IMG/VR virus record: IMGVR_UViG_2541047953_000001
Span: 1-11,099 of that record
Length of the DNA: 11,099 nt
Strand: one strand, 5' to 3'
Source of the DNA: a virus
Taxonomy: Duplodnaviria > Heunggongvirae > Uroviricota > Caudoviricetes
Below the pieces are notes generated by a model. That model had not been told where the DNA came from. It searched no databases and saw only the letters and a list, made by a program, of their open reading frames with translations. How positions within the stretch are numbered: the first letter of the stretch is position 1; each line of letters opens with the position of its first letter. Shown piece after piece: positions 1-7,484 of this stretch. The translations under genes and the position numbers were made by a program.

Positions 1-552
1 ATGTACAAACACCCATTTGTGATGCTTGCCTATTTGATCACGCAACACTTTACAGGCGGTAAAGGCGTTTACCCGAATCAGGTAAACACAAAAGACAAAC
101 TAACAAAAGACAATATAAAACCTTTTTCGTCCGAGAATTCTGGCGAATCCTCTGACCAACCAGAAAACGATCTTCCTGTGGTGAAACCAGATGCTGCAAT
201 TCAGAGCGGCAGCAAGTGGGGGACAGCAGAAGACCTGACCGCCGCAGAGTGGATGTTTGACATGGTGAAGACCATCGCGCCCTCAGCCAGAAAACCGAAT
301 TTTGCAGGGTGGGCTAACGATATCCGCCTGATGCGTGAACGTGACGGACGTAACCACCGCGACATGTGCGTGCTGTTCCGCTGGGCATGCCAGGACAACT
401 TCTGGTCCGGTAACGTGCTGAGTCCGGCCAAACTCCGCGACAAGTGGACCCAGCTCGAAATCAACCGAAACAAGCAACAGGCTGGCGTGACAGCCGGCAA
501 ATCAAAACTCGACCTGACGAACACTGACTGGATTTACGGGGTGGATTTATGA
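1..552 (+). CDS. Prophage hypothetical protein (nin-region), 183 aa in window; may be the 3' part of a longer gene starting upstream of the window
   Basis: Open frame from window position 1 to a TGA at 550-552 that overlaps the ATG of the next ORF (ATGA coupling). It has an acidic/Ser-rich linker followed by a conserved-looking C-terminal block ([35 protein letters not shown]...CQDNFWSGN). It sits directly upstream of the Q antiterminator, where nin-region genes lie in lambdoid phages. Family assignment is uncertain; I did not recognise it as RusA, NinE or YbcN. Confidence 0.45.
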
Positions 553-719
553 AAAACATCGCCGCACAGATGATTAACTTTGACCGTGAGCAGATGCGTC
601 GGATCGCCAACAACATGCCGGAACAGTACGACGAAAAGCCGCAGGTACCGGATACTGAAGAATTACGCCAAAACCCTGACAGGAGCAGGAGTATGAAGTC
701 AGAGATAACAATCAACTAA
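549..719 (+). CDS. Small hypothetical protein, 56 aa, translationally coupled to the upstream ORF
   Basis: ATG at 549 overlaps the upstream TGA, with a GGTGG purine-rich stretch a few nt upstream; stop TAA at 717-719. Not in the supplied ORF track, presumably below its length cut-off. No recognisable motif. Confidence 0.35.
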   Translation: MKNIAAQMINFDREQMRRIANNMPEQYDEKPQVPDTEELRQNPDRSRSMKSEITIN

Positions 720-781
720 TACTATTTTGTTGATTTTTGCTTGTAATTGGCGTTCTGGTCTGATTTTTGTGGAGTAAGTTG

Positions 782-1165
782 ATGCGTGATATTCAGATGG
801 TTCTTGAGCGTTGGGGAGCGTGGGCGGCTAATAATCATGAAGATGTGACCTGGTCGTCCATTGCCGCCGGTTTTAAGGGATTAATTACTTCAAAAGTAAA
901 ATCTCGCCCGCAATGTTGTGACGATGACGCGATGATCATTTGCGGGTGCATGGCCCGTCTGAAAAAGAACAACAGCGATTTGCACGATTTATTAGTAGAT
1001 TATTATGTAGTCGGTATGACATTCATGTCACTGGCAGGTAAGCATTGCTGCTCTGATGGTTATATCGGGAAAAGGTTACAGAAGGCTGAGGGTATAATTG
1101 AAGGGATGTTAATGGCATTAGATATCCGGTTAGAGATGGATATCGTTGTTAATAACTCTAATTAA
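782..1165 (+). CDS. quuD: Late-gene antitermination protein Q (short Q family, 127 aa)
   Basis: ATG at 782 preceded by GGAG at 771-774; the track ORF starts at an upstream TTG at 767. Cys-rich zinc-binding-like motifs ([18 protein letters not shown]). The protein matches my recollection of DLP12 QuuD ([24 protein letters not shown]...). It sits immediately upstream of the lysis region. Confidence 0.85.
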
Positions 1166-1189
1166 TATGCCAGTTGTTTACTAAAAGTT

Positions 1190-1217
1190 ATTAAAAATGG
1201 GGCGTTGCAACGCCCCC
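1190..1217 (-). terminator. Candidate intrinsic terminator (minus strand), possibly terminating the porin transcript
   Basis: Perfect 18-nt palindrome GGGGCGTTGCAACGCCCC at 1199-1216. On the minus strand it is followed by ATTTTTAATAACTTTT; on the plus strand the downstream sequence is A-rich, so it is not a plus-strand terminator. It lies about 140 nt downstream of the nmpC stop. Confidence 0.4.
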
Positions 1218-1304
1218 AAAAATAAAGGGTAATATATAACAGAAGGTTTATATAGTTAGAAGCAAGGTTGTGCTCCTAAAGGAAGTGGCTTGAGGGAGCC
1301 ACTT

Positions 1305-1346
1305 ATATGTTGGGGAGGCAAAGCCTCCCGCAACATATCTTTTTCG
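1305..1346 (+). terminator. Candidate intrinsic terminator (plus strand) downstream of Q; tR'-like
   Basis: Stem ATATGTTGGGGAGGC / GCCTCCC(G)CAACATAT with an AAA loop and one bulged base, followed by CTTTTTCG. It lies about 180 nt after the Q stop codon, comparable to the pR'-tR' leader of lambdoid phages. Confidence 0.45.
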
Positions 1347-1354
1347 TAATCAGA

Positions 1355-2452
1355 TTAGAACTGGTAAACCAGACCTACAGCAACGATGTCATCAGTGCTT
1401 ACACCGAGTGCTTTAGTGAAGTCATTTTTGTCAAGCAGGTTGATTTTGTAATCAACGAAAGTAGACATATTTTTGTTGAAGTAATAGGTTGCACCTACAT
1501 CAACATATTTGACTAAGTCCTGATCGCCCCATACTCCAAGATCCTTACCTTTAGATTGCAGGTAAGCAACGGACGGACGCAGACCGAAATCGAACTGATA
1601 TTGTGCAACAGCTTCGAAGTTTTGAGCTTTATTAGCAACGAAGTGATCAGCAAATACAGTCATATTCTGGGTTTCAGAATAGGTAGTGGCCAGGTAAATG
1701 TTGTTAGCGTCATATTTCAGACCTGCGGCCCAAACTTCTGCATTTTTACCGGAAGCAAATACTTCAGGAAGAACTTTCCCTGCATTAACTTGAGTGTCGG
1801 TACGATCAGATTTCGCATAAGTTGCACCGATACCGAATCCTTCGTATTCATAGGTAGCAGAGAAACCGAAGCCATCACCGTTACCTTCAGTGTAGTTATC
1901 GAAATCGCTACGATCGTTTTTGCCTTGGTACTGAGCAGCAAAGTTCAGACCATCAACCAGACCAAAGAAGTCGTTGTTACGATAGGTTGCAACACCAGTG
2001 GTACGACCAGTCATGAACACATCTGTTTGGGTCCAGGTATCGCCACCGAATTCTGGCAGAACGTCAGTCCACGCACCGATGTCGTATGCTACACCGTAGT
2101 TACGGCCGTAATCGATTGAGCCGTAGTCACCGAATTTCAGGCCTGCAAATGCAAGACGGGTTTTGTCTTTGGAGGAACCTTGAGATTCAGCGCGGTTGCC
2201 TTTGAATTCATATTCCCACTGACCGAAACCAGTCAGCTGATCGTTGATTTGGGTTTCACCTTTGAAGCCAAGACGGGCATAAGTAGTATCACCATCATCT
2301 GCATCATTAGAGGAGAAGTAGTGCTTAGCATTAACTTTCCCGTACAGATCCAGCTTGTTACTGTCTTTATTATAAATTTCAGCTGCCTGAGCAGACATCG
2401 CCATCAGTACTGATGCAGCTACAGCAGAAATTGCCACTGTTAATTTTTTCAT
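1355..2452 (-). CDS. nmpC: Outer-membrane general porin of the OmpC/OmpF/PhoE family (NmpC/OmpD-like), 365 aa, apparently intact
   Basis: Signal peptide [23 protein letters not shown] then AEIYNKD; Gly/Tyr/Asp/Asn-rich beta-barrel composition; C-terminal ...VGLVYQF with the terminal Phe typical of porins. It occupies the Q-to-holin interval, as nmpC does in DLP12. There is no IS interruption in this window. Confidence 0.9.
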
Positions 2453-2880
2453 CGTGAGCCCTTTTTTTTGAACTATTATTAAAAAATGATGTCACTGCGC
2501 GATAAATATTCATCTAATCAATGTGATTATTTCAAGATGTAAGTTTTGGTTTCTCGTTTGATTTGTGAAGTAGATCTCTATTTTTATCTGAACTTTTTTC
2601 TATCGAATCCTATTTATAGCTCTTGGCTGAATAAAAATAAATCTATTAGCCAATTTATATTAACGGCTGTTATTTATAAGTGCTCTATAATTTGAAGGTT
2701 CAATTTAAATCGGCTAAAAATAACACTGGAAATTATTTGTTGGTTATTTGTTGAGATTTGCTTATGTATTTGTAGTGGTGTTTTCAATACTCGGTAGCAT
2801 TCTCGCAAATATCATTTAGTGGTTTACGTACGTAAAAAATTGGTTATGCTGTTAAGAGTGGTTACTTCGTCACACAGCTT

Positions 2881-2913
2881 AAACCCGCCGTCGAGCGGGT
2901 TTTTCCATTTTTT
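2881..2913 (+). terminator. Candidate intrinsic terminator (plus strand) about 110 bp upstream of the holin start
   Basis: Stem AAACCCGC / GCGGGTTT with loop CGTCGA, followed by TTTCCATTTTTT. On the minus strand the downstream sequence is not U-rich. Confidence 0.45.
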
Positions 2914-3025
2914 GAGTCTCGATATTAGCTGATAACCCAATACCTGAGTTATTCACTGACTCCGAGTCTGTTACGTTTCGTAGTATTCCCTCAATTTACA
3001 CCCGCTTTGTCTGCGAGGTGGGGTT

Positions 3026-3241
3026 ATGAAATCCATGGATAAGTTAACAACGGGTGTCGCCTATGGCACCTCAGCAGGTAGTGCCGGGTACTGGTTTTTA
3101 CAGCTGCTAGATAAAGTCACGCCCTCACAGTGGGCGGCAATTGGAGTGCTGGGTAGCCTGGTATTTGGCCTGCTGACGTACCTGACAAACCTTTATTTCA
3201 AGATTAAAGAAGATAAGCGTAAGGCTGCGAGAGGTGAATAA
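3026..3241 (+). CDS. essD: Class II holin / pinholin of the phage 21 S type, 71 aa, with dual-start motif
   Basis: ATG at 3026 preceded by GAGGTGGGG. The N-terminus MKSMDK offers two in-frame starts (Met1 and Met4), the antiholin/holin arrangement of S21. Two transmembrane segments ([16 protein letters not shown] and [17 protein letters not shown]) and a basic C-terminus [11 protein letters not shown]. The stop TAA overlaps the endolysin ATG (TAATG). Confidence 0.85.
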
Positions 3242-3738
3242 TGTCGCCATCATTACGCAAGGCTGTAGCAGCTGCTATTGGTGGTGGGGCTGTTGCCATA
3301 GCGTCTGTGCTCATCACTGGTCCGAGTGGTGACGATGGTCTGGAAGGTGTCAGCTACATACCATATAAAGATATTGTTGGTGTATGGACTGTATGTCACG
3401 GGCATACAGGAAAAGACATCATGCTCGGTAAAACGTATACCAAAGCAGAATGCAAAGCACTCTTGAATAAAGACCTTGCCACTGTCGCCAGACAAATTAA
3501 CCCGTACATCAAAGTCGATATACCGGAAACAACGCGCGGCGCTCTTTACTCATTCGTTTACAACGTGGGTGCTGGCAATTTCAGAACATCGACGCTTCTT
3601 CGCAAAATAAACCAGGGCGATATCAAAGGCGCATGTGATCAGCTACGTCGCTGGACATATGCTGGCGGTAAGCAATGGAAAGGTCTCATGACTCGTCGTG
3701 AGATTGAGCGTGAAATCTGTTTGTGGGGTCAGCAATGA
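3241..3738 (+). CDS. rrrD: SAR endolysin, T4-lysozyme-like muramidase (R21 type), 165 aa
   Basis: The N-terminal Gly/Ala-rich weakly hydrophobic segment ([20 protein letters not shown]) is a signal-anchor-release domain. It is followed by a lysozyme catalytic region with E, D and T within [23 protein letters not shown]. The protein matches my recollection of phage 21 R / DLP12 RrrD. Confidence 0.9.
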
Positions 3739-4196
3739 ACAGAGTAACCGCGATTATCTCCGCTCTGGTTATCTGCATCATCGTCTGCCTGTCATGGGCT
3801 GTTAATCATTACCGTGATAACGCCATTACCTACAAAGCCCAGCGCGACAAAAATGTCAGAGAACTGAAGCTGGCGAACGCGGCAATTACTGACATGCAGA
3901 TGCGTCAGCGTGATGTTGCTGCGCTCGATGCAAAATACACGAAGGAGTTAGCTGATGCGAAAGCTGAAAATGATGCTCTGCGTGATGATGTTGCCGCTGG
4001 TCGTCGTCGGTTGCACATCAAAGCAGTCTGTCAGTCAGTGCGTGAAGCCACCACCGCCTCCGGCGTGGATAATGCAGCCTCCCCCCGACTGGCAGACACC
4101 GCTGAACGGGATTATTTCACCCTCAGAGAGAGGCTGATCACTATGCAAAAACAACTGGAAGGAACCCAGAAGTATATTAATGAGCAGTGCAGATAG
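3735..4196 (+). CDS. rzpD: Inner-membrane spanin Rz (i-spanin), lambda type, 153 aa
   Basis: ATG at 3735 overlaps the endolysin TGA (ATGA); the track ORF begins at an upstream GTG at 3723. N-terminal transmembrane helix ([16 protein letters not shown]) followed by a charged coiled-coil-like periplasmic domain. Nearly identical to lambda Rz as I recall it. Confidence 0.85.
3955..4137 (+). CDS. rzoD: Outer-membrane lipoprotein spanin Rz1 (o-spanin), 60 aa, embedded in the +1 frame of Rz
   Basis: Signal peptide with lipobox LVVVGC, then a proline-rich mature region ([15 protein letters not shown]). It lies wholly inside the Rz gene in a different frame, the classic Rz/Rz1 architecture. Confidence 0.8.
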
Positions 4197-4227
4197 AGTT
4201 GCCCATATCGATGGGCAACTCATGCAA

Positions 4228-4521
4228 TTATTGTGAGCAATACACACGCGCTTCCAGCGGAGTATAAATGCCTAAAGTAATAAAACCGAGCAATCCATTT
4301 ACGAATGTTTGCTGGGTTTCTGTTTTAACAACATTTTCTGCGCCGCCACAAATTTTGGCTGCATCGACAGTTTTCTTCTGCCCAATTCCAGAAACGAAGA
4401 AATGATGAGTGATGGTTTCCTTTGGTGCTACTGCTGCCGGTTTGTTTTGAACAGTAAACGTCTGTTGAGCACATCCTGTAATAAGCAGGGCCAGCGCAGT
4501 AGCGAGTAGCATTTTTTTCAT
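4228..4521 (-). CDS. borD: Bor lipoprotein (Iss/Bor serum-resistance family), 97 aa
   Basis: Signal peptide and lipobox (LLITGC). It is on the opposite strand immediately after Rz, the lambda bor position. Sequence matches my recollection of Bor. Confidence 0.85.
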   Translation of the reverse strand: MKKMLLATALALLITGCAQQTFTVQNKPAAVAPKETITHHFFVSGIGQKKTVDAAKICGGAENVVKTETQQTFVNGLLGFITLGIYTPLEARVYCSQ

Positions 4522-4811
4522 GGTGTTATTCCCGATGCTTTTTGAAGTTCGCAGAATCGTATGTGTAGAAAATTAAACAAACCCTAAACAATGAGTTGAA
4601 ATTTCATATTGTTAATATTTATTAATGTATGTCAGGTGCGATGAATCGTCATTGTATTCCCGGATTAACTATGTCCACAGCCCTGACGGGGAACTTCTCT
4701 GCGGGAGTGTCCGGGAATAATTAAAAACGATGCACACAGGGTTTAGCGCGTACACGTATTGCATTATGCCAACGCCCCGGTGCTGACACGGAAGAAACCG
4801 GACGTTATGAT

Positions 4812-5222
4812 TTAGCGTGGAAAGATTTGTGTAGTGTTCTGAATGCTCTCAGTAAATAGTAATGAATTATCAAAGGTATAGTAATATCTTTTATGTTCAT
4901 GGATATTTGTAACCCATCGGAAAACTCCTGCTTTAGCAAGATTTTCCCTGTATTGCTGAAATGTGATTTCTCTTGATTTCAACCTATCATAGGACGTTTC
5001 TATAAGATGCGTGTTTCTTGAGAATTTAACATTTACAACCTTTTTAAGTCCTTTTATTAACACAGTGTTATCGTTTTCTAACACGATGTGAATATTATCT
5101 GTGGCTAGATAGTAAATATAATGTGAGACGTTGTGACGTTTTAGTTCAGAATAAAACAATTCACAGTTTAAATCTTTTCGCACTTGATCGAATATTTCTT
5201 TAAAAATGGCAACCTGAGCCAT
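4812..5222 (-). CDS. ybcV: DUF1398-type prophage moron protein (YbcV-like), 136 aa from the Met with a strong RBS
   Basis: The minus-strand ORF is open to 5345 (177 aa) but its first codon is GTG with no RBS. The ATG at 5222-5220 is preceded by GGAAGG at about 8 nt spacing and gives 136 aa, matching my recollection of the YbcV length. The gene is visibly AT-rich relative to its flanks. Confidence 0.6.
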
Positions 5223-5507
5223 TGGTAAAACCTTCCATGTGATACGAGGGCGCGTAGTTTGCATTATCGTTTTTATCGTTTCAATCTGGTCTGACCTCTT
5301 TGTGTTTTGTTGATGATTTATGTCAAATATTAGGAATGTTTTCACTTAATAGTATTGGTTGCGTAACAAAGTGCGGTCCTGCTGGCATTCTGGAGGGAAA
5401 TACAACCGACAGATGTATGTAAGGCCAACGTGCTCAAATCTTCATACAGAAAGATTTGAAGTAATATTTTAACCGCTAGATGAAGAGCAAGCGCATGGAG
5501 CGACAAA

Positions 5508-5714
5508 ATGAATAAAGAACAATCTGCTGATGATCCCTCCGTGGATCTGATTCGTGTAAAAAATATGCTTAATAGCACCATTTCTATGAGTTACCCTGAT
5601 GTTGTAATTGCATGTATAGAACATAAGGTGTCTCTGGAAGCATTCAGAGCAATTGAGGCAGCGTTGGTGAAGCACGATAATAATATGAAGGATTATTCCC
5701 TGGTGGTTGACTGA
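5508..5714 (+). CDS. ybcW: Small prophage protein (YbcW-like), 68 aa
   Basis: ATG at 5508 with GGAG about 9 nt upstream. Its position and length correspond to the small ORF near the right end of lambda and to DLP12 ybcW. No recognisable motif. Confidence 0.6.
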
Positions 5715-5878
5715 TCACCATAACTGCTAATCATTCAAACTATTTAGCCTGTGACAGAGCCAACACGCAGTCTGTCACTGTCAGGAAAGTGGTAAAACTG
5801 CAACTCAATTACTGCAATGCCCTCGTAATTAAGTGAATTTACAATATCGTCCTGTTCGGAGGGAAGAACGCGGGATGT

Positions 5879-6073
5879 TCATTCTTCATCACTTTTAATT
5901 GATGTATATGCTCTCTTTTCTGACGTTAGTCTCCGACGGCAGGCTTCAATGACCCAGGCTGAGAAATTCCCGGACCCTTTTTGCTCAAGAGCGATGTTAA
6001 TTTGTTCAATCATTTGGTTAGGAAAGCGGATGTTGCGGGTTGTTGTTCTGCGGGTTCTGTTCTTCGTTGACAT
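5879..6073 (-). CDS. ylcI: Small basic protein (YlcI-like, DUF3950), 64 aa, possible ribbon-helix-helix DNA binder
   Basis: Minus-strand ORF ending just before cos. The N-terminus is Arg/Thr-rich and is followed by RNIRFPNQMIEQINIALEQ, which has the strand-helix pattern of Arc/MetJ/CopG-type RHH proteins. The surrounding DNA matches my recollection of the lambda right end. Confidence 0.6.
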   Translation of the reverse strand: MSTKNRTRRTTTRNIRFPNQMIEQINIALEQKGSGNFSAWVIEACRRRLTSEKRAYTSIKSDEE

Positions 6074-6244
6074 GAGGTTGCCCCGTATTCAGTGTCGCTG
6101 ATTTGTATTGTCTGAAGTTGTTTTTACGTTAAGTTGATGCAGATCAATTAATACGATACCTGCGTCATAATTGATTATTTGACGTGGTTTGATGGCCTCC
6201 ACGCACGTTGTGATATGTAGATGATAATCATTATCACTTTACGG

Positions 6245-6461
6245 GTCCTTTCCGGTGATCCGACAGGTTACGGGGCGGCGACCTCGCGGGTTTTCGCTAT
6301 TTATGAAAATTTTCCGGTTTAAGGCGTTTCCGTTCTTCTTCGTCGTAACTTAATGTTTTTATTTAAAATACCCCCTAAAAAGAAAGGAAACGACAGGTGC
6401 TGAAAACGAACTTTTGGGCCTTTGTCGTTTCCTTTCTCTGTTTTTGGCCGTGGAATGAACA
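6245..6461. other. Lambda-type cos packaging site (cosQ region, cosN with 12-nt cohesive end at 6273-6284, cosB with R sites) immediately upstream of nu1
   Basis: GATCCGACAGGTTACG|GGGCGGCGACCT|CGCGGGTTTTCGCTATTTATGAAAATTTTCCGGTTTAAGGCGTTTCCGTTCTTCTTCG... matches the joined right-end/left-end sequence of lambda as I recall it. There are a few substitutions in the cosB region, for example CGTAACTT versus lambda CATAACTT. Confidence 0.8.
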
Positions 6462-7112
6462 ATGGAAGTCAACAAAAAGCAGCTGGCTGACATTTTCGGT
6501 GCGAGTATCCGTACCATTCAGAACTGGCAGGAACAGGGAATGCCCGTTCTGCGAGGCGGTGGCAAGGGTAATGAGGTGCTTTATGACTCTGCCGCCGTTA
6601 TAAAATGGTATGCCGAAAGGGATGCTGAAATTGAGAACGAAAAGCTGCGCCGGGAGGTTGAAGAACTGCGCCAGGCCAGCGAGGCAGATCTCCAGCCAGG
6701 GACTATTGAGTACGAACGCCATCGACTTACGCGTGCGCAGGCCGACGCACAGGAACTGAAGAATGCCAGAGACTCAGCTGAAGTGGTGGAAACCGCATTC
6801 TGTACTTTCGTGCTGTCGCGGATCGCAGGTGAAATTGCCAGTATTCTCGACGGGATCCCCCTGTCGGTGCAGCGGCGTTTTCCGGAACTGGAAAACCGAC
6901 ATGTTGATTTCCTGAAACGGGATATCATCAAAGCCATGAACAAAGCAGCCGCGCTGGATGAACTGATACCCGGACCATCACGTCTGCAAACATCGACCGT
7001 CTGCGCTTTACCTTCGGTGTGCAGGCACTGGTGGAAACCACCTCAAAGGGGGACCGGAATCCGTCGGAAGTCCGCCTGCTGGTTCAGATACAGCGTAACG
7101 GTGGCTGGGTGA
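6462..7112 (+). pseudogene. nu1: Terminase small subunit Nu1, C-terminally truncated and fused out of frame to J-derived sequence
   Basis: The first ~171 codons match lambda Nu1 (MEVNKKQLADIFGASIRTIQNWQEQGMPVLRGGGKGNEV...KAMNKAAALDELIPG). After about position 6970-6975 the reading frame continues into unrelated sequence (PSRLQTSTVCALPSV...) until a TGA at 7110-7112. The terminal residues of lambda Nu1 (...LLSEYIEQSG) are missing. Confidence 0.8.
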
Positions 7113-7482
7113 CGGAAAAAGACATCACCATTAAAGGCAAAACCACCTCGCAGTATCTGGCCTCGGTGGTGGTGGATAACCTGCCGCCGCGCCCGTTCAA
7201 CATCCGGATGCGCAGGATGACGCCGGACAGCACCACAGACCAGCTGCAGAACAAAACGCTCTGGTCGTCATACACCGAAATCATCGATGTGAAACAGTGC
7301 TACCCGAACACGGCACTGGTCGGCGTGCAGGTGGACTCGGAGCAGTTCGGCAGCCAGCAGGTGAGCCGTAATTATCATCTTCGCGGGCGCATTCTGCAGG
7401 TGCCGTCGAACTATAACCCGCAGACGCGGCAATACAGCGGTATCTGGGACGGAACGTTTAAGCCGGCATACAGCAACAACCC
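6971..7482 (+). pseudogene. J: Internal fragment of tail tip/host-specificity protein J (about 170 codons), with no start and no native stop
   Basis: A different frame from nu1 encodes ...[168 protein letters not shown], which I recognise as an internal segment of lambda J. Similarity ends abruptly at about 7480 (window PCD-stop versus lambda MAWCLWD...). Confidence 0.75.
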
Positions 7483-7484
7483 AT

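Follow-up and report, generated by a model that had tools for sequence, protein, structure and literature searches.

A reversed porin gene probably lies upstream of the late promoter in a lambdoid phage locus with a Q21-family antiterminator

In the 11,099-nt stretch of phage DNA analyzed here (positions 1 to 11,099 of IMG/VR record IMGVR_UViG_2541047953_000001, hereafter the window), an intact porin gene is located, in reverse orientation, between the late antiterminator gene Q and the lysis genes. We propose, with a probability of roughly 85%, that this porin is a self-contained moron inserted between Q and its cognate late promoter pR', and that late transcription starts at about A2857 and crosses no part of the porin. 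The porin would stay outside the late operon because late transcription would start beyond it. The evidence consists of homology to the pR' region of Stx phages, the coincidence of the predicted start with a start site mapped in Escherichia coli K-12, and the comparative layout of related loci.

Gene Layout and the Porin

The genes of the region, and the region upstream of the porin, are as follows.

782-1165, plus strand: Q, late antiterminator of the QuuD type, Q21 family, 127 aa (PF06530, E 4e-53, full-length)
1355-2452, minus strand: porin of the OmpC family, nmpC/lc type, cargo gene (intact 365-aa open reading frame)
2453-2651, minus strand: porin promoter region (PnmpC) and 5' UTR, assigned from K-12 data on a spacer about 99% identical
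3026-3241, plus strand: S21-type holin/antiholin, the first late gene (PF04971)
3241-3738, plus strand: SAR endolysin (SAR-type lysozyme; PF00959)
3723-4196, plus strand: Rz (PF03245)
3955-4137, plus strand: Rz1, embedded in Rz

The Q protein is 78-81% identical to the Q proteins of 933W, Sp5, and other Stx phages, and matches the Q21 structures 6P1B/6JNX weakly (phmmer E 7.6e-7, residues 8-87). The porin matches Porin_1 over its full length (1-337/337, E 1e-156) as well as the PA-2 lc record and DLP12 nmpC. The holin, endolysin, and Rz genes are annotated likewise in phages 434B and PhiR30_1, and window positions 700-3300 are 100% identical to PhiR30_1, which is a plaque-forming phage. The initial annotation had described this order of Q, porin, and holin on the plus, minus, and plus strands, respectively, and had noted that nmpC is split by IS5 in K-12 while the porin here is intact; both descriptions are correct. 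A tRNA scan of the window found none, although 933W and phage 21 do carry tRNAs after pR', and an Rfam search of 1166-3025 at a permissive threshold gave no match.

The porin has the properties of a moron, in that it has its own promoter, known from the K-12 literature on PnmpC (PMC11677980), and its own terminator, a minus-strand hairpin with a U-tract (1216-1190), and in that the junction it occupies is filled in some homologous phages and empty in others. In K-12, PnmpC activity is lost upon deletion of positions -199 to -1, its start is a G as determined by 5' RACE, control of nmpC by CRP, OmpR, IHF, MprA, and RyhB has been reported, and PnmpC is reported to be expressed from the repressed prophage (PMC11677980).

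Late Promoter, Start Site, and Leader

Two features between the porin promoter region and the holin make up the proposed late promoter unit.

2823-2850, plus strand: late promoter pR' (-35 TTTACG at 2823-2828, 16-bp spacer, -10 TATGCT at 2845-2850)
2857-2880, plus strand: late transcription start A2857 and leader (AGTGGTTACTTCGTCAC...), assigned from homology and K-12 Cappable-seq

Window positions 2822-2904 align at 77-78% with positions 20665-20746 of 933W and with VT1-Sakai, and the aligned stretch in these phages is annotated as pR', qut, and the first terminator, directly after Q. In the Stx phages of strain Sakai, the distance from the pR' start (dRNA-seq) to the RNA 3' end (Term-seq) is 258 nt. 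For Sp5, this span fits a start at the A located 7 nt after the -10 element TATCAT and an end at the second terminator, and the base homologous to this A in the window is A2857. A plus-strand transcription start site (TSS) in the K-12 Cappable-seq data (U00096.2 position 576452) converts exactly to window position 2857. The signal at this site is weak (score 1.7, near the cut-off of 1.5). The chance of finding a TSS within 1 nt on either side of the predicted start is about 0.5%, given about one TSS per 560 nt per strand. The regulatory DNA of K-12 DLP12 to which these data apply is about 99% identical to the spacer here, and 100% identical across pR'-tR'.

The -35 element and the spacer of pR' contain a perfect 14-bp palindrome, TTTACGTACGTAAA (2823-2836), which was seen as a self-hit, plus an A-tract. 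This palindrome is the putative Q-binding element of pR'. Among 68 distinct sequences, the -35/spacer element co-varies with the Q subtype (TTTACGnnCGTAAA, TAACGCGnnCGCA, TGGAATTCCA, TTCGTTACGAA, and TGTTATAACA), whereas the leader and the position of the hairpin that follows it are constant across Q subtypes. In 32 porin-type loci, the pR' core has a single variable site, compared with 24-37% variable sites in its flanks. The leader motif occurs once in the window. Because this motif was the search bait for the 100 loci described below, the conservation of 2853-2873 is by construction. In phage 1H12, whose Q is 87.5% identical, the leader motif is not detectable.

The pR' hexamers match the sigma-70 consensus at 8/12 positions. 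The best candidate for a sigma-dependent pause element, TACTTC at +7 to +12, matches at 2/6 positions, compared with 4/6 for TACATT in 933W. The locus contains several parts of a Q21-family late cassette, namely a PF06530 antiterminator, a sigma-70 promoter (with the 8/12 hexamers) and start upstream of the lysis and late genes, and, between that start and the late genes, a predicted intrinsic terminator consisting of a hairpin and a U-tract. It departs from such a cassette in that Q is not directly before its promoter, as 1657 bp (1166-2822) separate the Q stop codon from the -35 element. Because Q acts in trans, this wide gap is a difference in layout and not in mechanism.

Terminator Before the Holin

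2881-2913, plus strand: tR', promoter-proximal intrinsic terminator (stem 2881-2902, i.e., +25 to +46; U-rich tract to +57)

The hairpin at 2881-2902 has a folding energy of about -12 kcal/mol on the plus strand and is followed by TTTCCATTTTTT. Its energy by itself is unremarkable (z -1.6). The site is the sole terminator-like one between the late start and the holin, and is homologous to the first annotated terminator after pR' of 933W. A hairpin with a T-tract is present in 53/68 distinct leaders, with at least six differing stem sequences and compensatory changes. In Stx phages this first hairpin is leaky, since polymerase there reaches +258 without Q.

The window as a whole shows no excess of terminator-like sites (12 found vs. 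10.9 expected from shuffles). The three hairpins pointed out in the initial annotation (1190-1217 on the minus strand, 1305-1346 and 2881-2913 on the plus strand) were all found in place, and it is their intergenic placement and conservation, not the bare pattern, that sets them above chance.

Spacer Between Q and the Porin

The spacer between Q and the porin contains three hairpins.

1190-1216, minus strand: intrinsic terminator found by terminator scan (stem 1199-1216, U-tract 1198-1190)
1278-1299, either strand: extra 8-bp hairpin, without a U-tract on either strand (-11.8 to -13.8 kcal/mol)
1305-1346, plus strand: strong hairpin and intrinsic terminator (stem 1305-1338 followed by CTTTTT), 9 nt past the porin stop codon

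The 1199-1216 hairpin folds at -13.9 kcal/mol on the minus strand and is followed by ATTTTTAAT / AUUUUUAAU, and its variation among 32 porin-type loci falls mostly in loop positions. The porin transcript likely ends here, which would shield Q from antisense transcription. The 1278-1299 hairpin has 2 variable sites out of 22. The stem at 1305-1338 has a folding energy of -22.7 kcal/mol on the plus strand (z -4.3) and -23.3 kcal/mol on the minus strand (z -4.7); CTTTTTCG follows it on the plus strand, while the minus strand folds equally well and has no U-tract. A K-12 plus-strand start is located within Q (at about window position 1009), upstream of this hairpin. The most plausible reading of the 1199-1216 and 1305-1346 hairpins, we infer, is that of a convergent pair of terminators insulating Q and the porin from each other.

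Proposed Model of Late Transcription

In the proposed model, a weak sigma-70 promoter (TTTACG / TATGCT) would drive late transcription, with the start at about A2857. Without Q, RNA polymerase would halt at the hairpin and U-tract at +25 to +57 (2881-2913), while Q loaded near the start would allow read-through into the lysis genes (holin, endolysin, and Rz) and the remainder of the late operon. Transcription of the porin would run in the divergent direction, from a host-regulated promoter of its own (within 2453-2651), and the porin transcript would end at the 1338-1305 hairpin and at the canonical terminator of the minus strand (1216-1190), both in the spacer that separates Q from the porin. 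The terminator at 1305-1346 may stop unmodified transcription leaving Q, including that from the start inside Q, which would keep the porin free of antisense RNA in the lysogen. Antisense interference with the porin upon induction is possible, and would then come from early, pR-derived read-through past Q, and not from pR'.

Alternative Sources of Late Transcription

In K-12, the strongest plus-strand start in the spacer between the porin and the holin is located next to the porin start codon.

2474-2486, plus strand: strong start A2486 with -10 TATTAT at 2474-2479 (K-12 Cappable-seq TSS 576081, score 90.2)

The initial annotation considered two positions for the late promoter. If, as in lambda, it were just after Q (within 1166-1300, e.g., GTAATA-16-TATAGT at 1229-1256) with tR' at 1305-1346, the late transcript would cross the porin in antisense and the porin would be shut off upon induction. 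A plus-strand hairpin of high stability, followed by a T-run, does occur 140-180 nt after Q, comparable to the lambda 6S RNA unit, with an 8/12 promoter-like match ahead of it, and antisense genes within Q-dependent late operons are known, e.g., taiEcA of phi80. The promoter match is of little help here, as a standard promoter scan (at least 9/12) detects neither 1229-1256 nor 2823-2850, and lowering the threshold to 8/12 recovers the two of them along with 62 hits on the strand (about 1 per 180 nt); consensus scans were rejected as a discriminator because the spacer after Q also has an 8/12 match. What speaks against a promoter in this spacer is that the K-12 Cappable-seq list contains no plus-strand TSS between quuD and nmpC, that the spacer holds no copy of the leader motif and no homologue of the Q-subtype-specific element, that it is found only in phages with the porin (36/36), that the hairpin follows the porin stop codon by 9 nt, the usual position for a terminator between convergent genes, and that insertion of an rrnB terminator into this spacer was without effect in K-12 (PMC11677980). 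We therefore regard a late promoter directly after Q as very improbable. The claims that a Q-modified transcript must cross about 1.1 kb of porin antisense, and that the porin was inserted downstream of pR'/tR', are not supported, as the porin is upstream of the late start at 2857 and no plus-strand TSS is listed in the K-12 spacer. The second position, with a functional pR'-qut-tR' unit next to the holin, is supported by the homology to Stx pR', the coincidence with the K-12 TSS, the co-variation with Q subtype, and the layout of 100 loci.

The lysis genes could also be transcribed from a promoter beside the porin start codon, with Q acting there and 2823-2857 being minor or vestigial. The start at 2486 is by far the strongest plus-strand start in the spacer (K-12 score 90 vs. 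1.7 at 2857), its promoter is also a match in the relaxed scan, and it lies head-to-head with PnmpC, so that its transcripts head toward pR' and tR'. An RpoE-like motif, GAACTA-N16-TCACT, overlaps it at 2470-2496. Published work on DLP12 is reported to place the essD promoter elsewhere and to describe it as RpoE-dependent, and a paper citing that work gives an essD regulatory region of -121 to +650 and states that Q, RpoE, and Hha govern the operon. From the primers given in the citing paper, we infer that the published essD promoter (essDp) starts near window position 2501. Nevertheless, a protein of the Q family loads at its binding element and pauses no farther than about 25 nt from its own promoter, whereas the subtype-specific element and leader (2823-2880) are 340-370 nt downstream of the 2486 and 2501 starts. 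Moreover, the upstream promoter is missing in cargo-free relatives, where Q abuts pR', and transcripts from 2486 would still face the terminator at 2881-2913. Q-dependent transcription from beside the porin start codon is thus unlikely, though such a promoter may coexist as a host-controlled, Q-independent input that leaves the position of the Q-dependent start unchanged. It is extremely improbable, in turn, that the pR' homologue is an inert relic and that the late genes are expressed mainly from antiterminated early transcripts that extend past Q and the spacer terminators and across the porin. In lambda, antiterminated early transcription does give some late expression, and the promoter hexamers here are weak (8/12). 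However, no non-coding part of the locus is more conserved than the promoter core and leader, the promoter element tracks Q subtype across many cargo types, plaque-forming phages of this layout keep an intact Q, and a start was detected at the predicted base in K-12.

Comparison With Known Systems

This type of locus is not new, and has long been known from DLP12 and PA-2 lc. In DLP12 (qsr') of K-12, the genes quuD, nmpC::IS5, essD, rrrD, and rzpD have the same order and orientation as here, and the same is true of the PA-2 lc porin region. In DLP12 and PA-2 lc, identity is 97% for the spacer between Q and the porin and about 99% for that between the porin and the holin, which contains pR', leader, and hairpin. 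The layout, covering at least 80% of the query, is present in 2465/5426 complete E. coli genomes. The window differs from DLP12 in that its porin is intact and without IS5, and in that the element is from a plaque-forming phage.

In the Stx phages 933W, Sp5, and VT1-Sakai, homology to the window covers the -35 element TTTACG, the palindromic spacer element, the -10 element, the start context (TAAGAGTGGTTAC), and the first hairpin. The Stx promoter overlaps the end of Q without intervening cargo, whereas here the porin lies between them. The main mapped 3' end in Stx phages is at the second terminator at +258, which gives the small RNA StxS (the Hfq-binding sRNA formed by the 3' 74 nt of a 258-nt pR'-tR' RNA). 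The window does not encode an RNA of this type, as the homology to the Stx leader is limited to the first ~50 nt (window 2822-2904), the StxS part and its terminator are absent, and the single hairpin is followed 113 bp later by the holin. In Stx phages, the cargo (tRNAs and stx) is downstream of pR' in sense orientation, while the cargo here is upstream and antisense.

Phage 21, whose Q is the characterized member of the family, shares with the window the PF06530 Q family and a lysis cassette consisting of a pinholin and a SAR endolysin, as well as a compact plan, with its Q-binding element (QBE) between -35 and -10 and its terminator at +3 to +50. The Q21 QBE, as taken from the GenBank annotation, is a direct repeat (ATTGAGCA AATGAGCA), in contrast to the palindrome of the putative element here. 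In addition, Q21 abuts its promoter, which Q in the window does not, and phage 21 has a clear -10-like pause element (TAAGCT at +2 to +7) that is not evident here.

The phi80 gene taiEcA, a defense gene, resembles the porin in being reversed prophage cargo near Q and the lysis genes that is expressed in the lysogen, an arrangement described as a "noncontiguous operon". For phi80, the proposal is that taiEcA is situated beyond the late promoter and that late transcripts passing through the gene silence it. Because the cargo in the window (1355-2452) is upstream of the late start (2857), pR' transcription would avoid the porin, unlike taiEcA.

A Cargo Slot Between Q and pR'

We compared 100 IMG/VR loci in which the leader motif is preceded by a PF06530 Q gene on its own strand. 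Q is located 6-41 bp from the leader motif in 23/100 loci, and in the other 77, a cargo of 627-2462 bp separates the two, which is wholly antisense in 71. The order of Q, cargo, and pR' is also found in PhiR40_1, SfII, and mEp390. The junction in relatives is empty, or is occupied by a porin or by one of about 20 other cargo types.

The cargo includes porins, lipoproteins, and anti-phage defense genes (Kiwa, a candidate KAP NTPase system, an HNH nuclease, and several unknown two-gene sets). Several cargo types have a hairpin on the Q side. With a home-made hairpin finder, a hairpin was detected within the first 70 nt after Q in about half of the architectures, which is suggestive only, as this finder gives many false positives inside ORFs.

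We tentatively suggest, while considering it somewhat less than an even chance, that the junction between Q and pR' is a dedicated, almost always antisense cargo slot in lambdoid phages with a Q of the Q933, DLP12, or SfII type, and that the Q-binding element in these phages is a Q-subtype-specific palindrome and not a direct repeat like that of Q21. As the cargo in such a slot would be divergent from pR', it would be expressed in the lysogen, remain outside the late operon, and be exposed only to antiterminated early transcription upon induction. This slot, including its defense genes, is the sole point of the analysis that is mildly new.

Implications

For this window, expression of the porin and late transcription no longer need to be seen as in conflict, and the late promoter, start, and terminator now have exact coordinates in a type of prophage that is very common in E. 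coli. In DLP12, the comparative and start-site evidence places a Q-responsive promoter 169 nt upstream of essD, while the RpoE-dependent essD promoter, by our reading of its published description, would be about 525 nt upstream of essD. Knowledge of an antisense slot for cargo, defense systems included, at the junction of Q and pR' could aid the mining of prophages for new cargo, and could help predict when such cargo is turned off.

Gene Content and Distribution of the Locus

Based on the ORF map and Pfam scan, the window contains a lambdoid phage lysis cassette and the right end of the early operon, with the following genes:

782-1165, plus strand: Q (PF06530)
1355-2452, minus strand: OmpC-family porin (365 aa)
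3026-3241, plus strand: holin, S21-type
3241-3738: lysozyme
3723-4196: Rz
4228-4521, minus strand: bor

Together with folding, these results confirmed the gene order, strands and hairpins of the initial annotation, and the porin is indeed intact, its domain match being full-length. The locus is an old acquaintance of a known and very common type, since the plaque-forming phage PhiR30_1 matches positions 700-3300 at 100% identity and ~35 other phages do so at 90-99% (among them a 434 derivative that acquired the segment from DLP12, the cryptic prophage of K-12), and, of 5426 complete E. coli genomes, 2465 have the layout at ≥80% query coverage. Its K-12 counterpart is the DLP12 segment quuD-nmpC::IS5-essD, and the phage PA-2 lc record also matches. 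The GenBank record of PhiR30_1 gives the porin (3656-4814) as two CDS (3656-4699 and 4680-4814), an annotation artefact because the identical stretch in the window, porin included, has an intact ORF. Outside the present locus, an Rfam IS009 match was seen at 9160-9352 (plus strand; 103.8 bits, below the gathering score of 117; E 1.6e-23).

Probable Late Promoter Next to the Holin

When the porin-holin spacer was used as query in a sensitive search, 2822-2904 matched, at 77-78% identity, the DNA directly 3' of Q in hundreds of Stx phages besides 933W, VT1-Sakai and phage 24B; their records annotate pR', qut and a first terminator in this stretch. In the alignment, the window and 933W share a -35 TTTACG, a 16-bp spacer, a -10 (TATGCT in the window, TATCAT in 933W), the invariant block TAAGAGTGGTTAC, and a homologous hairpin and T-run. 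The Q of the window is 78-81% identical to Stx-phage Q across 126/127 residues, so similar sites should be recognized. The pR' hexamers themselves match the consensus poorly (8/12), an equally good chance-level match is found in the Q-porin spacer (1166-1354), and no convincing pause element was identified in the late leader. In phage 21, the characterized family member, the Q-binding element sits between the -35 and the -10, a pause element spans +2 to +8, and the terminator covers +3 to +50; the position of the terminator here (+25 to +57) is therefore normal for the Q family.

Published start-site data point to the same place. In the Sakai Stx phages, the distance from the pR' start (dRNA-seq) to the 3' end (Term-seq) is 258 nt (PMC7547250). 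On the Sp5 sequence, this distance is matched if transcription begins at the A 7 nt past TATCAT and stops at the second terminator; the window homolog of that A is A2857. The porin-holin spacer is ~99% identical to that of K-12 DLP12, and 100% identical from pR' to the hairpin. We took K-12 start sites from a Cappable-seq list (PMC4782308), with a coordinate conversion (U00096.3 = U00096.2 + 777 here) that agrees with essD at 577398. The plus-strand start at 576452 falls exactly on window 2857, with a weak signal (score 1.7); at a background of ~1 start per 560 nt per strand, such a match is unlikely to arise by chance. The complete set of nearby plus-strand starts corresponds to window positions 1009, 1498, 1858, 2486, 2857, and 3312, with none in the Q-porin spacer. 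The starts at ~1498 and ~1858 are antisense within the porin coding region (scores 16.8 and 2.8 respectively), and the former may not exist in an intact porin gene, as it is 85 nt from the K-12 IS5 insertion point.

Comparative Layout and Co-variation With Q

We scanned IMG/VR for the conserved leader motif and found 120 loci, 100 of which had enough upstream DNA; all 100 have a PF06530 Q homolog upstream on the same strand. In 23 of these, the gap between the Q stop and the motif is 6-41 bp, and Q abuts the promoter as in 933W, while in the other 77 it is 627-2462 bp and holds 1-3 ORFs, which are all antisense in 71 loci and sense in the remaining 6. The same plan is found in the annotated phages PhiR40_1, SfII and mEp390, the last with a bidirectional terminator marked by the depositors between Q and the antisense gene.

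The 120 loci comprise 68 distinct promoter-leader sequences, in which the -35/spacer element changes with Q subtype: TTTACGnnCGTAAA in the DLP12/933W/PhiR40 group, TAACGCGnnCGCA in the SfII/mEp390 group, and TGGAATTCCA, TTCGTTACGAA and TGTTATAACA in smaller groups. The window version, recovered as a self-hit, is a perfect 14-bp palindrome at 2823-2836, TTTACGTACGTAAA. Because the element co-varies with Q subtype and the leader and hairpin position stay constant throughout, the palindrome looks as a Q-binding element should, and we regard it as a putative one. The Q21 site, in contrast, is a direct repeat, so the Q branch of the window may bind its site differently. A hairpin and T-tract at -7 kcal/mol or better is present in 53 of the 68 sequences, and its stem comes in six or more different versions. 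In a comparison of 32 distinct porin-type loci, a single site varied within the pR' core vs. 24-37% of sites in the flanking spacer. The conservation of 2853-2873 is by construction, as this motif was the search bait. At 2897, within the 3' half of the tR' stem, 16 porin-type loci have T instead of G (GCTGG for GCGGG), and their hairpin is weaker (-5.3 vs. about -11.5 kcal/mol); the window carries the strong form.

The initial annotation had left open whether pR'/tR' follows Q directly, with the late transcript crossing the porin antisense, or whether the functional pR'-qut-tR' unit is next to the holin. The Stx pR' homology, the K-12 start at 2857, the layout of 100 loci and the co-variation with Q subtype all support the latter, and the leader block is absent from the Q-porin spacer by motif search, as is any listed K-12 start. 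The former might apply in phage 1H12, since its late promoter was not located: its Q is 87.5% identical to that of the window, and no leader motif was detectable. A plus-strand terminator after Q in 1H12 (3879-4035) resembles the StxS/tR' terminator of Stx phages and is followed by an antisense lipocalin (Blc) gene. For the window, we propose that the late operon begins at ~2857 next to the holin, which would place the porin upstream of it and outside it, contrary to the earlier claim of a porin antisense to the late operon. The porin promoter lies within 199 bp of the ATG, as determined in K-12 by 5' RACE and deletion (PMC11677980). An antisense effect on the porin at induction would need antiterminated early transcription out of Q.

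Predicted Terminators Flanking the Porin

Folding and a terminator scan showed that all three hairpins previously claimed are real. The hairpin at 1305-1338 (-22.7 and -23.3 kcal/mol on the two strands, z about -4.5) has a T-run on the plus strand only, that at 1199-1216 has a U-tract on the minus strand only, and that at 2881-2902 has TTTCCATTTTTT directly 3' on the plus strand. Over the window as a whole, simple terminator patterns show no enrichment (12 found vs. 10.9 expected), and the predicted terminator function is argued from position and conservation, not from counts.

The Q-porin spacer is confined to porin-carrying phages (36/36 records). Its canonical minus-strand terminator (1216-1190) would receive the porin transcript and protect Q, and its plus-strand terminator (1305-1346) would face transcription coming out of Q. 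The K-12 start inside Q (~1009, score 9.3) would provide transcription that needs stopping before the porin. Inserting a further terminator in this spacer in K-12 had no effect, which the authors interpreted as a sign that such transcription is already blocked by intrinsic terminators (PMC11677980).

Other features were seen around this spacer. A minus-strand promoter-like site (GTGACA-18-CATAAT, 1031-1002, 10/12) overlaps the ~1009 start in the 3' part of Q (979-1031), and could be an anti-Q promoter by analogy to paQ of lambda and phage 21. At 1176-1186, 11 nt past the Q stop, GTTTAC...TAAAA looks like the pR' palindrome (GTTTACGTACGTAAAA) stripped of its centre, with just the outer halves left, and may be a scar of cargo insertion; no such sequence was seen at the left junction of PhiR40_1. 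A 69-aa ORF (1307-1516, plus strand) begins within the 1305-1338 hairpin, overlaps the porin 3' end in antisense, and is listed as a hypothetical gene in the 434B annotation; it has no match in Pfam and is unlikely to be a genuine gene.

In Stx phages without Q, polymerase passes the homologous first hairpin and stops at +258 (PMC7547250). In the window, no terminator-like site other than the hairpin at 2881-2902 precedes the holin. K-12 has a strong plus-strand start (score 90) equivalent to A2486, with a -10 TATTAT at 2474-2479. The start is only ~35 nt away from the porin ATG, in a head-to-head arrangement with the porin promoter, and RNA made from it would meet the 2881-2913 terminator after ~400 nt. 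This argues that the hairpin works, as such transcripts would otherwise reach intact lysis genes. This start may be related to the RpoE-dependent essD promoter of the DLP12 literature, for which primers and numbering given in a citing paper led us to place the +1 near 2501, adjoining an RpoE-like motif at 2470-2496. The essD promoter may act alongside pR' as an input from the host, and is unlikely to be the site where Q loads.

A Proposed Antisense Cargo Slot

The window stretch 1166-2822 is one instance of ~20 different cargo sets found at the Q-pR' junction in related prophages (L012-L131, the 120 IMG/VR loci). The porin is the commonest; others include Kiwa (KwaB protein and a membrane partner), a KAP-family NTPase (PADLOC PDC-S20), an HNH nuclease (PDC-M68A), predicted lipoproteins, an esterase, an NA37-family protein, and several unannotated two-gene sets. 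What is mildly new is the proposed generalization of an antisense cargo slot between Q and pR', one that also carries defence genes, together with the subtype-specific palindromes. We found no description of these in the searchable literature, although one may exist.
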